Below are positions 9,001-24,000 of a stretch of DNA of 64,000 nucleotides, piece after piece. The position numbers are program-made. The stretch's first letter is position 1, and every line of letters starts with the position of its first letter. The stretch comes from Acidobacteriota bacterium (GTDB lineage Bacteria > Acidobacteriota > Thermoanaerobaculia > UBA5066 > Gp7-AA6), in contig JBKOZO010000014.1 of the NCBI GenBank assembly GCA_046725935.1, positions 18,736-82,735 of the forward strand. The letters run 5' to 3'.

Positions 9001-12000
9001 CGGGCCAGCGGCCGTTGACGGTCACGGCCGCACGCGCCGCGCCGCGCGCCAGCAGCCAGCGCTGGATCGCGTAGGAGGGGCTCTCCGGCGCGGTGGGGCG
9101 CCAGTTGCCGGCGTACTTGATCCAGCGCCGCCGCGGCGTCCGAGAAAAGGCCAGGAGGAGGATCGTCAGCAGGCCGATGTTCGAGGGGCAGCGGACGTGC
9201 ACGACGTCGCACCGCCGCAGCTCCCGGCGGATCACGCGAAGGTATTGCGGCCACGTGCCGAGGACTCCCAGTTTGGCGCCGACCGACGTGCCGCCCGCGG
9301 GACGGACCGGCACGTGACGGATGTTCTTCGCTTCGTACGGAAGAGCGCTGGCCGGCCCCGGACCCTCATGGAGCGGAGCCACGTGCACGAGCTCGTCGAA
9401 CAGTCGCGCCAGGCGGTCCAGCTCCCTCACCGTCGGTCCCCAGCCCACCGTGAGGCCGTCCCGGCGAAAGTGCTCCGTATGGGAGATGACGAGAAGTCTC
9501 ATTCCAGCGCGATCTGCGTGGCCAGGAGCACGATTGCTCGGTGGTAAAGACCCGCCCGCGACACGCCCGGCCATCCGCGGCCATCGCAAAAGGCCTCGAC
9601 CATCGGACGATACACGTCGGGCCAGAAGTACTCCGACAGCTTGCTGGATGGTCCGAGCAGATAGTCGCGGAGCCGGCTCTTGAATTCCGCCGTGACCCAC
9701 GAGTCCACGGGAATGGAGAACCCCATCTTCGGCTTTCTCGCCACCGCGGAAGGGAGCCGGCGCCCGGCGATCTCACGCAGCACTCTCTTGCAGAGAGTAC
9801 CGTCGACTCGAAGCCGGTGCGGCAACGTCATTCCGAAGTCGAACAGGTCCTCGTCGAGAAACGGCACTCGAACCTCGAGGCCATCTCGCATGCTGGCCGT
9901 GTCCACCTTGAACAGATAGTCGTTCGGCAAACGCAGCCGCACGTTGATCTCGGTGTTGTGAGCGGAGAGCCTCTCCAGACGCGACGCATTTCGGGGCAAC
10001 CCATATTCCCACTGCGGCTCGAAGAGTCTTCTCACGGGAAGCAACCCCTCGGCGCGAGAGAGCTGCGCGCGCTCGTCGGCGCGAACCCAGCATTGCAGGG
10101 TCTCCAGAATCCCGACGTCGTCCGCCTCCGACAACTCGCGCATGCGCTGGGGCAAACGGTCCGACGTGACCGCCATGCGGGCCAGCGCGCGAGCGCCCAG
10201 AACGCCCGCGCGCCTCGCGGCGACGGGAAGGCTCTGCCAGTTCAGGATCTTCTGGATCCGCAGATAACTTTCGTATCCACCGAAGGCTTCATCGCCGCCA
10301 TCGCCGGACAGGGCCACGGTCACGTGCCGGCGCATGAGATTGCTGATGCCACTCACGGCAAAAATGGACGTGTCCGCGAACGGCTGGCCGGCATGCCGCA
10401 GGAGACCCGTCACGTGCTCCCAGCTCCCCGGCATGGCGTCCATGTGGAGCGTCTGGTGCTGGCTGCCGATGGACCGTGCGACCTCCAGCGCCGCCCAGGT
10501 CTCGTCGTAGGCCGCGTCGGCAAAGCTGACGTTGAACGTCTTGACGCCTCCCGGAACCCCTCGCTGGGCGGCCTCGCTGACGAGCGACGAATCGATGCCT
10601 CCGCTCAGCAATGACCCGAGCGGCACATCGCTCTCCAGCTGGCTCTGGACCGCTTTTTCCAGAAGGCGATCGGCTCGATCGATCGCTCGATCCAGCGTCA
10701 GGGAAGCGTCCGGCGCGATGCTCCAGCGGTGGTAGCGTCGAACGGTCCACTCGACCGCTTCTCCGTCGAACTCGGCTTCGAGGAGCTCCCCGGGCTCCAG
10801 GGAACGGATTCCGGCATAGAAGGTCTGGGGCGCCGGAATGTACGTCAGCGCGGCGAAGTCGTAGATCGCCTGGCGATCCGGCCGATCGTCGACCCCGGGC
10901 AGGAGCCTCAGCGCGTTGATCTCACTGGCGAAGCCGAGACGGCCTGCGTCGGCGGCGTAGAAAAGAGGCTTGATTCCGAAACGGTCTCGCGCCAGCAGGA
11001 GCCGCCGCCGGCGGGAGTCGTAAATCGCGAACGCGAACATCCCCCGGAGGGCGGCAACCAGGTTCGCTCCCTCCTCTTCGTAGAGGTGCGGGAGGATCTC
11101 GGCGTCGGAGTGACCGCGGAAGACGTGACCTCGCGCCTCGAGTCGCTGCCGGTGCTCGCGGTGGTTGTAGATCTCGCCGTTGAAGACGATCCAGACGGTA
11201 CCATCCTCGTTGCCCATGGGCTGCGCGCCCGTGGACGCGAGATCGATGATGCTGAGCCGCGTGTGAACCAGAGCCGCCTCGGGCCAGCTTCGACATCCGG
11301 TCGCATCGGGCCCGCGATGGCGCAGCGCCGCCATCATCCGGGCCGGGAGATCCGGGTCCCGTTCACCTCGCCCGAGCCAGCCGGCGATGCCGCACACGGG
11401 CTTTCAGCTCCTCCCTGTGGATGTCCGAGCGTCTTTCAACGCCATTTCCTTCGCATGAGGCTCGGGTCGCGCCGGGCTTCCGCTCATCAAGGCGCGTAGC
11501 GTGCGGTCGTACTCGGCCGCGCGGCAATGCCAGGTCTGTTCCCGAAGAGCGCGTTGCCGGGCCGCTTCGCCCATTCGGCGTCGCAGCGATTCGTCTCCGA
11601 GAAGCCGCACCAGTGTCCCGGCCAGGGCGTCGACGTCGCCTTCCGGCACCGAGAATCCGGTCTCGCCGTCGACGATGGCCTCGCTCAGGCCCGATCCCGC
11701 GGTCACCACCGACGGCGTCGCGCAGAGGGCCGCCTCCACGACCGCGATCCCGAACCCTTCGAAGTCCCCATCGGGAGTGTGCCGGCTGGTCATCGCGAAC
11801 ACATCGGCGGCGTTCATGAGATGGAGAACGTCCTCGCCGTCGAGACGACCCGGAAAGTGAACGTTCTCGTGCACGTTCAGATCCCTCGCGACCGTTTTCA
11901 GCCGATCCTGGATCGTCGGAAGCCCCACCGCGAGATAGTGCGTCTCCGGATGTTGCTCCAGGACCCGCGGCATCGCCCGGATCACCAGCTCCTGACCCTT

Positions 12001-21000: not shown

Positions 21001-24000
21001 GAAGCGCGAACACGTCGATCTCCGCCAGGAAGGACGGGACGTCGCGGACGTTACCGAAGAACACCACGCGATCCGAAAGCGAGAGCTCCGCGACGAGGCG
21101 CCGCAGAGTCGAACAGTAGCCGTCGTCGAACTCCTTGCCCGCGAGCCACAGAACCGTTCCCGGAACCTGCGCGACGGCGCGAATCAGGATCTCCTGGTTT
21201 TTCACCGGGAGCAGGTGGGCCACGCATCCCACCACGGTTGCCGACGACGGCACCTGCCGCTCCGAACGAAGTCCGAGACGAGGCGGCCGGTCCGGGGAGA
21301 ATCGCGCGGTGTCCACGCCCCGGGGCACGAGCCGGGCGCGGCGGCGGAACGCGGCGGGAGCGAAGAAGCCGCGCATCATGTCCGTGTTTTGCGCGGCGAT
21401 GCGCGTCGCGAGAAGAGACCGGACGTACCAGGAGCGCCGATGCCAGTTCATGTTCTTCTTCGTGTAGATCCAGGCCCGCGTGCCTGCAAAGCGCGCCACC
21501 AGCGGTTCGGTGTAGTCGTCGACGTAGTGAAACGAATGCCAGAGCGCGAAACGGCGGCCGCGAAACGGGCGGGCCGCTTGCCGGAGCCGGAAGGCAAACG
21601 TGGCCAGCGGATGAACCGGAACCACAAAGCGGGCGCTGAAGAGGGGCACGTCGGATCGTTCAATCTCGGACGCCAGGGACCCGCCGGGGCGCAGCACGCA
21701 GATCGCTGGAGCGAATCGGCGGCGATCCAGGCGAGAGACGACGTTCCAGAGCGCGGCTCCGGAGCCGGCGGTGTCGAAATTGGGAATCGTGAAGAGAATC
21801 GGCGCCGCGGAGTTCATGGTCCGCCGGAGGGGCGGGCGTGCTCACGCGCCCAGAGTTGAAGCGCAAGAAGAGTCCAGATTCCCCACTTGCGGTTTTCGCC
21901 GCGCAGGTGACCGTTCCAATACTTCCGGACGGCCGCGCGGTCGAACACCCCCGACGGATAGAGATCTCCGGCGCACAGCACGTCTTCGACGAACGGCCGC
22001 ATGGGGCCGCGCAGCCAGTCTCCCAGCGGCACCGCGAAGCCTCGCTTGGGCCGCGGGATGGACTCCGCCGGCACCGAGCGGGCGAGGAGATCCCGGAGAG
22101 GCGCCTTGCGTGTCCCGTTGCGCATGCATGTGAAGGGATCGATTCGCAGGGAGACGTCGATGACCTCCCGATCCAGAAGCGGAACGCGGACTTCGAGGCT
22201 GTGATGCATCGAGCCCATGTCGACTTTCTTCAGGCCCCGCTGAAGCTGCCCGTAGAACTCGACGTAGCGCGAATAGTTCGCCAGGTCGCGGGTGCCTCGA
22301 AAATCTCCGAAGTCGTAGAGGCCGAAGTCTTCGGGCAGCGGCGGCAGGCACGGCGCCAGAGCGCGCAGGTCGTCCCCGCTCATGTGTTCGTTCACGCCGA
22401 AGTAGTAGGCGCCGGGGTCTTTCGCCACCACGGCATCGTTTCGCCTCGGCCCGATGCCGAGCCGGCCGGCCCCGTGGAGGGCCCGCCGGACCGGCCGGGG
22501 CCACCGGAAGAGAGACCCGCTCTTGAGCAGGGACGCGGGACGTTCGTACCCGAAGAACAGCTCGTCGCCTCCGTCGCCGGAGAGCGCGACTGTGACTTCT
22601 TCGCGCGCGAAGCGGCTGACGAGCATGGTGGGCAGGATCGAGAAATCGGCGAACGGCTCGTGCTGGGCCTTCCCCACCTCCGCCATCGCCGCCAGCGCTT
22701 CCTCGCCCGTGACCGGACGCAGCCGGAAATCCACGTCGAGATTGCGCCCGTAGGCGCGCGCATCCTCCGATTCGTCCTGGGCCCACCCGGGGCTCCCGAT
22801 CGTGAACGCTTTCAGCGCGGCGCCGGCCTGCGCGCGCGCGACCGCCGTCACCAGGGGAGAATCGACGCCGCCCGAAAGAAAGACCCCGAGCGGGACGTCG
22901 GCGATGCGCTGGCGGCGCCCCGACTGATCCAGGGCCGCGGCCAGCGGCTCCAGAGCGCCGTCGCCGGCGAGCTCGGGTTCGGGAGAGCGCGGAAGGGTCC
23001 ACCACGCGCGCTGCTCGAGCGTCCTGTCGGGCCCGATCCGCAGCCAGTGCCCCGGAGCCAGCTGATGGGTGTTCTCGAGGAGCCCGAAGGGCGGCGGGAT
23101 GTGTTGCAGCCGAAGATAGAGATGCATGACGTCGAGCCGCACGGGCCCGGGGTCCCCGAAGGGCGTTCGCAGCAGGATGTCGTACTGGGAGCCGAAGGCC
23201 AGGCCGGAGTGATCCGGAGGCGCGAACCAATACAGAGGCTTGATCCCGGCGTGGTCGCGCACGAGCGCGAGCTCGCCTTCGGGGACCCGGTACCAGGCGA
23301 ACGCAAACATCCCGTTCAAACGGGGAACGAGGTCGATCCCCCAGCGATTCAGCCCTTCGAGCAGCACTTCGGTGTCGGACTTGGAGCGAAGAACGACGCC
23401 CGCGCTTTCGAGCTCGCGGCCGAGCTCGCGATAGTTGTAGATCTCGCCGTTCATGATCAAGACCGATCGGCCGTCTCCGGAGACCATCGGCTGGTGTCCC
23501 GCGGGTGACGGATCGATGATCGCGAGGCGGCGAAACCCGAATTGAAGGCGTCCGCCCGGATCCGACCAGAATCCCTCGTCGTCCGGTCCGCGGCGAGCCA
23601 GACGCGCGGTCATCCGCCGGATCGCGGCGCCGAAGTCGGGGCCTCCCGCTCTCGGCTCTCTGGTCCACAAGCCCGCGATTCCGCACATCGGCTACGCCCC
23701 GACCTGGCCCGCCGCCTCGCGCGGCGCCGGCGACGCGGGTTTCTCCCGCCACCACAGCGAGCGGACGAAATTGACGAGGGAATGCGGCACCGACAGGCGC
23801 GGCAGCAGGTAGCGCGAGGCGGTTCCATCGACGGTCCCCTCCTGGGTGGTGAACGCGGCGGAATAACCCGCGCCGGCCAGCTCCTCCGGAGATTCGGGCA
23901 CGAAGTCTCCGTTGGGGAACGCGAACGACCGGCACGGCCGCGAGAGGCGCGACTCCAGTTCGTGCCGGGACTGACAGAGCTCGCGGATCCGGTCGGCCGC

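Follow-up and report, generated by a model that had tools for sequence, protein, structure and literature searches.

Enzymes related to asparagine synthase (AS) catalyze the amidation of substrates as well as the formation of lactams and nitriles, and the canonical ones take NH3 (PMC13060819). Natural-product pathways include AS homologues that have no glutaminase activity, and the occurrence of several AsnB homologues in one exopolysaccharide (EPS) locus has been documented for the psc1 cluster of Rubrivivax (PMC3684757). The subject of this article is AsnX, a remote AS-superfamily protein encoded in a glycan operon of an Acidobacteriota bacterium (contig JBKOZO010000014.1, positions 18,736 to 82,735; this stretch of 64,000 nucleotides, analyzed as a whole, is referred to as the window). 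Two Cys-bearing AsnB homologues of the same operon, AsnB-1 and AsnB-3, are ordinary. Apparently new are the AsnX family and the constant position that it occupies in a glycan cassette shared across phyla. No literature was found on glutaminase-less AsnB proteins in polysaccharide loci, and the literature on genes for amide-linked amino acids and on archaeal AglU offers no direct assignment for AsnX.

The precedents in chemistry and in fold are β-lactam synthetase (BLS) and CarA. Like AsnX, they have a two-domain AsnB fold in which a non-functional domain of the N-terminal nucleophile (Ntn) type has been kept and the adenylation domain, with its pyrophosphate-binding loop (PP-loop), is intact. 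They form amides independently of glutamine after adenylation of a carboxylate, in antibiotic rather than glycan pathways. Structural comparison with AsnX yields Foldseek E values of ∼1e-15, template modeling (TM) scores of 0.5-0.65 and 13-15% identity. AsnX is ∼100 residues longer and has invariant motifs of its own, EGFQDxTQ and RNWEVQ. The best structural match of AsnX is the hydroxyamidotransferase TsnB9 (PDB 7YLZ; TMq 0.65-0.69), a member of the long AsnB group whose substrate in trichostatin biosynthesis is a polyketide acid. Unlike AsnX, TsnB9 keeps the Cys nucleophile, and its 7YLZ chain starts MCGVAG.

The precedents in genetic setting are glycan loci in which AsnB homologues lie beside family 4 glycosyltransferases (GT4), deacetylases and FemAB-like genes, as they do in the window. 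WbpS, WbqG and PGN_1234 belong to the TIGR03108 family and are genetically needed for uronamide formation, which is lost on deletion of PGN_1234 (PMC7468200). The requirement of WbqG for GalNAcA amidation is attributed to King et al. 2010 where that work is cited in PMC7468200 and PMC3684757. In the associated pathway, the CE4 deacetylase VimE and the FemAB-like VimA swap the 2-N-acetyl group for Ser or Gly, and loci combining a VimA-like gene, a deacetylase, glycosyltransferases (GTs) and an AsnB homologue have been noted (PMC7468200). EPS loci of the XrtA/PEP-CTERM type (Rubrivivax psc1, Thauera, Nitrosomonas) resemble the window: they are very large, and their several AsnB homologues are accompanied by a CE4 deacetylase, a FemAB-like gene, CapK and numerous GT4s (PMC3684757, PMC7468200). 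The Rubrivivax psc1 cluster has three AsnB homologues and the local order GT1-AsnB-GT1-GT1-CapK-wzy (PMC3684757). The window differs from these loci in that its central enzyme is the dead-glutaminase AsnX and its export relies on a Wzm/Wzt ABC transporter.

Fold and boundaries of AsnX

Three AS-family genes that a preliminary description had placed on the minus strand were recovered there at the same positions (Table 1). AsnX, which begins MTTEAPE and carries PISGGLDSR at residues 242-250, was described as retaining only the PP-loop synthetase half of the enzyme. The domain search proposed at the time finds Asn_synthase (30 bits) and GATase_7 (17 bits) in AsnX, and no curated NCBIfam or Pfam family is matched at its cut-off. 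An AlphaFold2 model built with 61 homologues (predicted local distance difference test 91.1, predicted TM score 0.91) places a beta-rich Ntn-like domain at residues 12-205. The model aligns across both domains with TsnB9, BLS, CarA, human ASNS and E. coli AsnB (Foldseek E 2e-18 to 4e-13, TM 0.5-0.7). A two-domain AS fold is thus predicted, and the N-terminal half, far from missing, is modeled with confidence.

The start of AsnX deserves attention as a Cys-Gly pair further upstream would alter the picture. The frame was thought to be closed by overlap with the upstream gene; it is in fact open to 19819, giving 1002 codons in all, 406 of them upstream of the ATG. This extension has a G+C content at third codon positions (GC3) of 0.51 vs 0.86 in the AsnX gene, encodes 21% Arg and contains no xCG motif. 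The TGA of the preceding GNAT gene overlaps the AsnX ATG by 1 nt (TGATG), and the AsnX orthologues are ∼600 residues long with the same start point. The upstream open frame is an off-frame of the GNAT gene and is non-coding there. A mis-called start hiding an upstream MCG is ruled out by the GC3 value, the absence of xCG and the starts of the orthologues, and on these other grounds the earlier opinion on the start holds. The 1002-codon frame (16811-19819), born of high G+C content, is a typical trap for longest-frame gene calling in this genome.

AsnX and AsnB-3 do not match significantly in BLASTP (E=1), which rules out AsnX as a recent degenerate duplicate of AsnB-1 or AsnB-3. Homology of AsnX to Cys-bearing AsnBs is detectable by profiles (hhalign probability 99.3; TIGR01536 66.6 bits) and structure only, and TsnB9 is the sole match in a sequence search of the PDB with the AsnX family profile (E 7e-10). 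There are more than 769 close homologues of ∼600 residues. Against 1.84 billion representatives, the family profile retrieves 198 clusters (at 50% identity) at E≤1e-30 and 3,948 at 1e-10, with a long tail into general AS-like proteins beyond the stricter threshold. By these comparisons AsnX belongs to a separate, ancient, uncharacterized and sharply bounded family. Carriers occur in Acidobacteriota (Thermoanaerobaculia), Chloroflexota (Promineifilum, Ardenticatenaceae, Anaerolineae), Verrucomicrobiota and Bacteroidota, as well as in Gemmatimonadaceae, Desulfobaccales, Chlorobi, WOR-3 and Pirellulales; all 80 genome matches listed are metagenome-assembled genomes (MAGs) or assemblies of uncultured isolates. 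The earlier prediction of a polymer with multiple amidated sugars counted three copies of one enzyme and loses its footing here, AsnX being no paralogous copy of its neighbors.

Loss of the glutaminase site

As first described, AsnX lacks the nucleophilic Cys and retains SGGLDS. Profile-profile alignment with hhalign places W14-G15-D16 of AsnX on M-C2-G3 of AsnB, so that an internal Trp14 (window ∼18560-18562) occupies the Cys2 position. Of the remaining glutaminase residues of AsnB, both Arg49 and Asn74 have given way to Leu in AsnX, and the loop with Asp98 is deleted. Across the family, position 14 is variable. Its commonest residue is Cys (17/61 members, 28%), in the form CGDLL and always 5-27 residues inside the called protein; this Cys directly follows a Met, a possible alternative start, in P0052 and P0072 (of 61 aligned) and in locus L014. 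The Arg49 equivalent is hydrophobic in 61/61 members (L or V in 53/61), and at the Asn74 equivalent 61/61 have L, I, V, F, M or A, Cys-bearers included. The spacer with the SD(T/A)E loop that holds Asp98 falls ∼15 residues short of its length in 23 Cys-bearing AsnBs. Because the other glutaminase residues are lost in all members, the site is considered dead throughout the family and the occasional Cys vestigial. In source databases these proteins go by 'asparagine synthase (glutamine-hydrolysing)', 'asparagine synthase-related' or 'hypothetical', and the first of these labels cannot be right.

Conservation of the synthetase site

The SGGLDS motif is present in 73/73 AsnX orthologues from related loci. 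Seven of the 73 carry P[LV]SGGLDSR rather than the exact PISGGLDSR and must stem from the other retrieval pattern. At least 97% conservation over at least eight phyla is seen for 57 AsnX residues, among them E316, R325-Q326, G346-D347, K375, K421, K424, R431, R438, D452, R454, D457 and R470. R528-N529-W530-E531 also belongs to this set and aligns with the K449 loop (KxGF) of AsnB. No Lys of AsnX aligns with K449 of E. coli AsnB, and the invariant R528 lies beside that position; the Lys443 position of BLS and CarA likewise falls next to R528, in an alignment whose hhalign confidence is low near SGEGSDE.

The N-domain of the AsnX family is still under purifying selection, as it is in BLS and CarA, with a mean majority frequency of 0.52 vs 0.62 for the C-domain. 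Sister proteins of ∼470 residues (P0211, P0221, P0233) form a group that is devoid of residues 1-155, that is, of most of the Ntn-like domain, and keeps all C-domain motifs, for example PISGGLDSR, GHWGDVLFDD and RNWE(L/I)QF. The invariant synthetase residues, the conservation of the N-domain and the existence of the N-domain-less sister group together point to an active glutamine-independent adenylating enzyme and not to a pseudoenzyme.

A cassette shared across phyla

The 33 window proteins were compared by tblastn with 80 related loci, each region being given to its best query, and locus counts refer to the 47 loci having full 10-kb flanks. The recurrent order is ABC transporter, GT4, AsnX, GT4, GT4, long GT2, GT4, GT4, Wzy_C, GT4 and CapK-like (counts in Table 1). 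The same order emerges from independent gene calls with precomputed Pfam matches for Acidobacteriota, Desulfobaccales and Ardenticatenaceae as well as for two unclassified MAGs. A Cys-bearing AsnB lies within 10 kb of AsnX in 27/47 loci and is missing from that range in 20/47. The AsnB3-type gene is usually one gene upstream of AsnX, and 45/45 of the AsnB1/3-type neighbors begin MCGI. The trio of AsnB3-type, AsnX and AsnB1-type genes recurs in L038, L039, L040, L079 and L087, and hence the three-gene arrangement of the window is not due to chance. L039 is a close relative (83-97% identical) and is the sole related locus with both the GNAT gene and its adjacent GT2; the GNAT gene is also found in L040. 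The GNAT gene is a lineage-specific insertion. By this distribution AsnX is the core gene of the cassette, and the Cys-bearing AsnBs, the GNAT and the deacetylase are accessory.

AsnB-1 and AsnB-3

The Cys2 nucleophile reported for the other two AS-family proteins was found intact. AsnB-1 opens with a GTG start followed by CGIAG and AsnB-3 with ATG-CGIAG, the upstream frame being stopped after 2 codons and 1 codon, respectively; the Cys2 of AsnB-1 is certain as merely 2 codons precede the stop. Both domains are strongly matched in both proteins (GATase_7 and Asn_synthase, Pfam E 1e-37 to 1e-72), and both exceed the TIGR01536 cut-off of 267.1 bits (416.6 for AsnB-1, 340.8 for AsnB-3), under which AsnX falls. 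The alignment shows the glutaminase motifs RL(S/A)IID, NGEIYN and SD(A/T)E, which match Arg49, Asn74/Glu76 and Asp98 of E. coli AsnB, residues whose roles are reported by Larsen et al. 1999. The SGGxDS pyrophosphate-binding loop is common to AsnB-1, AsnB-3 and AsnX. With an identity of just 34%, AsnB-1 and AsnB-3 must be old paralogues. The best PDB match of AsnB-1 is TsnB9 (7YLZ, E 1.4e-50).

The identification of these enzymes as WbpS-type stands in part. TIGR03108 is the top NCBIfam match of AsnB-3 (364.4 bits) and is tied with TIGR01536 for AsnB-1 (416.3 bits), and both proteins share with the WbpS group the full Cys-Arg-Asn-Asp glutaminase set; the family cut-off of 816.9 bits is reached by none of the three proteins. 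AsnX is unlike the WbpS group, scoring 46 bits and having lost the glutaminase residues. AsnB-1 and AsnB-3 are accordingly best described as complete glutamine-dependent class-II amidotransferases of a WbpS-like long AsnB group, accessory to the cassette, and their conversion of uronic-acid carboxylates to uronamides is plausible.

The deacetylase and the GNAT flank the AsnX/AsnB-3 region and, together with AsnB-3, resemble the Porphyromonas VimE/VimA set for a uronamide linking sugar. Candidates for parts of the Wbp/Vim pathway in the window are Polysacc_deac_1, Acetyltransf_6, AsnB-3, the DegT aminotransferase and the nucleoside diphosphate (NDP)-sugar dehydrogenase. The GNAT has no TIGR03019 match, and WbpB- and WbpD-type genes were not found among the window genes scanned.

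Proposed role of AsnX

AsnX may be a glutamine-independent, ATP-dependent enzyme that forms an amide on a glycan carboxylate, at the core of a cross-phylum, ABC-dependent cassette; we give this proposal about an even chance. The enzyme would bind ATP and adenylate a carboxylate on a sugar nucleotide or on a lipid-linked glycan intermediate assembled by the flanking GT4 enzymes, and a nitrogen nucleophile from a source other than the glutaminase of AsnX itself would then resolve the acyl-AMP. Such a nucleophile would in the first place be a substrate-borne or small-molecule amine, yielding an amide or a lactam as in BLS, CarA and the lasso cyclases, AS-family enzymes that likewise form lactams, and in the second place free ammonia. 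The amine is ranked slightly above ammonia because BLS and CarA, in which an inactive N-domain is kept, use a substrate amine. The preliminary description had offered free ammonia, the glutaminase of another subunit or a non-catalytic role, leaving out the substrate amine, the option with the best precedent (BLS, carbapenam synthetase). With Wzm/Wzt export the glycan is expected to be completed in the cytoplasm, which fits a soluble enzyme working on a nucleotide sugar or lipid-linked intermediate, and the Wzy_C protein would then probably act as a ligase or O-oligosaccharyltransferase rather than as a polymerase.

A bolder and distinctly more tentative version is that AsnX represents a new functional class, a glutamine-independent glycan amide synthetase joining a sugar carboxylate to an amine (of an amino acid, of an amino sugar, or intramolecular to give a lactam). 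It would then be the signature enzyme of an unrecognized pathway for ABC-exported, Wzy_C-ligated glycoconjugates reaching from Acidobacteriota and Chloroflexota to Bacteroidota and Verrucomicrobiota.

Several observations weigh against the amide-forming role. Confidence of the hhalign alignment is low around SGEGSDE and the catalytic E348, and the Tyr-Asp/Glu dyad was not located in AsnX from this alignment. Genes for the NDP-sugar dehydrogenase and the TviC-like epimerase are near AsnX in 7-9/47 loci, mostly of Acidobacteriota, and no conserved amine-supplying gene was identified around AsnX in the related loci. Some of the 28% of members keeping a Cys at position 14 may conceivably have a residual or different N-domain chemistry.

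Among the alternatives, amidation of a uronic acid with free cytoplasmic ammonia, that is, WbpS chemistry without glutamine, survives best and is still improbable. It would agree with the ability of canonical AS enzymes and PesC to take NH3 instead of Gln (PMC13060819) and with the enzymes for uronic acids of N-acetylhexosamine (HexNAc) encoded in the window. Such an activity would duplicate that of the WbpS-like genes of the same operon, and the glutaminase domain, which NH3-dependent descendants of amidotransferases usually drop, is here both kept and conserved. To our knowledge, all characterized AS members with a dead glutaminase domain (BLS, CarA) use substrate amines.

Supply of ammonia in trans, by the glutaminase of AsnB-3 or AsnB-1 within a hetero-oligomer in which AsnX is an NH3-dependent uronamide synthetase, is weakened by the related loci and is considered unlikely. 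The proximity of Cys-bearing AsnBs in many loci, often with the AsnB3-type gene one position upstream, is what such a complex would lead one to expect, and the N-domain of AsnX retains TDRFGxxHxY, an interface-type motif common to AsnB. The 20 full loci without a partner within 10 kb and the N-domain-less sister group, with all its synthetase motifs, argue against it; moreover, AsnB-1 and AsnB-3 are complete with synthetase domains of their own, and no precedent for channeling in trans within the AS family was found in the literature.

A non-catalytic AsnX that scaffolds the neighboring glycosyltransferases carries an equally low probability in our judgment. In its favor, the gene is tightly set among GT4 genes, stop and start codons overlapping, its product has a dead glutaminase site, and E. 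coli AsnB K449 has no Lys aligned with it. Pseudoenzymes normally lose nucleotide-binding motifs, whereas SGGLDS is without exception in the orthologues and dozens of charged or polar synthetase residues, including R528 beside the K449 position, are invariant across phyla; this invariance of catalytic-type residues makes a scaffold role doubtful. An action on a peptide or protein, as a cyclase of peptides made by the ribosome and then post-translationally modified or a C-terminal amidase with a fortuitous glycan location, is highly improbable, as the weak matches to lasso-cyclase and macrolactam-cyclase models (NF033535, NF033561) that would speak for it reach 21 bits, far under the cut-off of 525, genes for precursor peptides and B-proteins are absent, and the neighbors are GTs and an exporter whose synteny is conserved across phyla.

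Organization of the locus

The glycan operon spans ∼41 kb and comprises 33 co-directional genes running from 41677 down to 184, as delimited by a GC3 frame plot. With a G+C content of ∼68% in the window, mechanical lists of open reading frames (ORFs) are rich in artefacts. Overlaps of 1-4 nt between neighboring operon genes are frequent. Gene assignments are based on Pfam and NCBIfam profile matches of the window proteins.

Table 1. Genes of the glycan operon in the order of transcription, with the number of related loci (of 47) that contain a counterpart
Gene or product	Coordinates	Strand	Remarks	Loci (of 47)
TPR protein	40355-41677	-		
Gene without assignment	39027-40358	-		
Wza	38188-39030	-		
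Wzc	35930-38188	-	tyrosine-kinase co-polymerase	
Gene without assignment	35097-35858	-		
NusG-like	34415-35002	-	NusG/KOW paralogue, UpxY/RfaH-like	
NDP-sugar dehydrogenase	32985-34319	-	best specific matches UDP-ManNAc dehydrogenase and TviB	
TviC-like NAD epimerase	31987-32988	-	4-epimerase	
Wzt	30689-31984	-		
Polysaccharide pyruvyl transferase	29255-30562	-		
GT2	28146-29258	-		
GT4	26902-28149	-		
ABC-2 permease	26046-26894	-	Wzm/Wzt-type exporter of cassette; Pfam	32
ABC ATPase	24707-26062	-	Wzm/Wzt-type exporter of cassette; Pfam	23, plus Wzt type 17
CE4 polysaccharide deacetylase	23692-24720	-	VimE-like; Pfam Polysacc_deac_1	14
AsnB-3	21814-23688	-	624 aa, MCGIAG	26 (AsnB3-type)
GT4_g	20672-21817	-	normally immediately upstream of AsnX in cassette	32
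GT2	19668-20675	-		
Acetyltransf_6 GNAT	18601-19743	-	FemAB/VimA-like; Pfam E 1.4e-30	
AsnX	16811-18601	-	596 aa, remote AS-superfamily protein	47
GT4_f	15604-16818	-	cassette core downstream of AsnX	42
GT4_e	14279-15619	-	cassette core downstream of AsnX	42
Long GT2	12630-14282	-	550 aa; cassette core downstream of AsnX	40
GT4_d	11404-12633	-	cassette core downstream of AsnX	38
AsnB-1	9499-11397	-	632 aa, GTG start, Cys2	4 (AsnB1-type)
GT4_c	8360-9502	-	cassette core, distal part	40
Wzy_C	6951-8363	-	O-antigen-ligase-like membrane protein; cassette core, distal part	39
GT4_b	5864-6958	-	cassette core, distal part	31
CapK/PaaK-like	4434-5867	-	adenylate-forming enzyme; cassette core, distal part	18 (undercount: ∼9 kb from AsnX, cut off at many flank edges)
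GT4	3217-4437	-		
WecB	2144-3220	-	non-hydrolysing UDP-GlcNAc 2-epimerase; TIGR00236, 315 bits vs cut-off 210	
Methyltransferase	1425-2147	-		
DegT aminotransferase	184-1428	-		

The locus, a large one, was rightly described as a glycan locus with a 2-epimerase (WecB) and an NDP-sugar dehydrogenase. These two enzymes, together with the TviC-like 4-epimerase, make HexNAc-uronic acid precursors plausible, and the dehydrogenase and the epimerase are the likely source of HexNAc-uronic acid. The pyruvyl transferase raises the prospect that the polymer bears pyruvate ketals, and a ketal may be a further carboxylate open to an adenylating enzyme. The CapK/PaaK-like protein (477 aa) is a second carboxylate-activating enzyme of the locus, and its counterparts in other loci likewise lie at the cassette's distal end. 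Its NCBIfam matches are to the DVU_1553 family AMP-dependent CoA ligase and PaaK; a scan of the Pfam library gave no match for it, and its homologue in L001 has CapK_C. For the cassette GTs, no curated NCBIfam or Pfam family reached its cut-off, the GT4 matches to stp1, stp2 and stp3 all being below it.

The operon contains two Wzt-type ABC ATPases and a single ABC-2 permease, and the carbohydrate-binding domain Wzt_C is recognizable in just one of the two ATPases. As Wzc and Wza (35930-39030) stand beside the ABC exporter, parts of ABC-dependent and Wzy-dependent export are mixed. No match to the exosortase/PEP-CTERM family was obtained among the window genes scanned. The NusG/KOW paralogue, resembling the specialized antiterminators UpxY and RfaH, separates the export genes from the 34-kb biosynthetic block, a position that suggests processive antitermination of the long operon.

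Beyond the operon, the plus strand between 46315 and 63332 encodes an RND/MacA-type adaptor (46315-47568) and an ABC ATPase (47579-48334), followed by tandem ORFs of ∼800 residues. Four of these ORFs were scanned and score 890-985 bits each on TIGR03434, the ADOP family of duplicated permeases; further ORFs of this run lie at 56024-58486 and ∼60960-63332. The tandem run of ADOP-type paralogues is notable in its own right. Acidobacteria gave the ADOP family its name, as would fit with the closest AsnX relatives being from Acidobacteriota.

Significance

The genes for amide-linked substituents of glycans, such as uronamides and amino-acid amides, are poorly assigned, and the AsnX family provides a concrete candidate. 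For its members, the routine annotation 'asparagine synthase (glutamine-hydrolysing)' is corrected. In phyla of soil and sludge that are abundant and mostly uncultured, AsnX marks an uncharacterized surface-glycan pathway.

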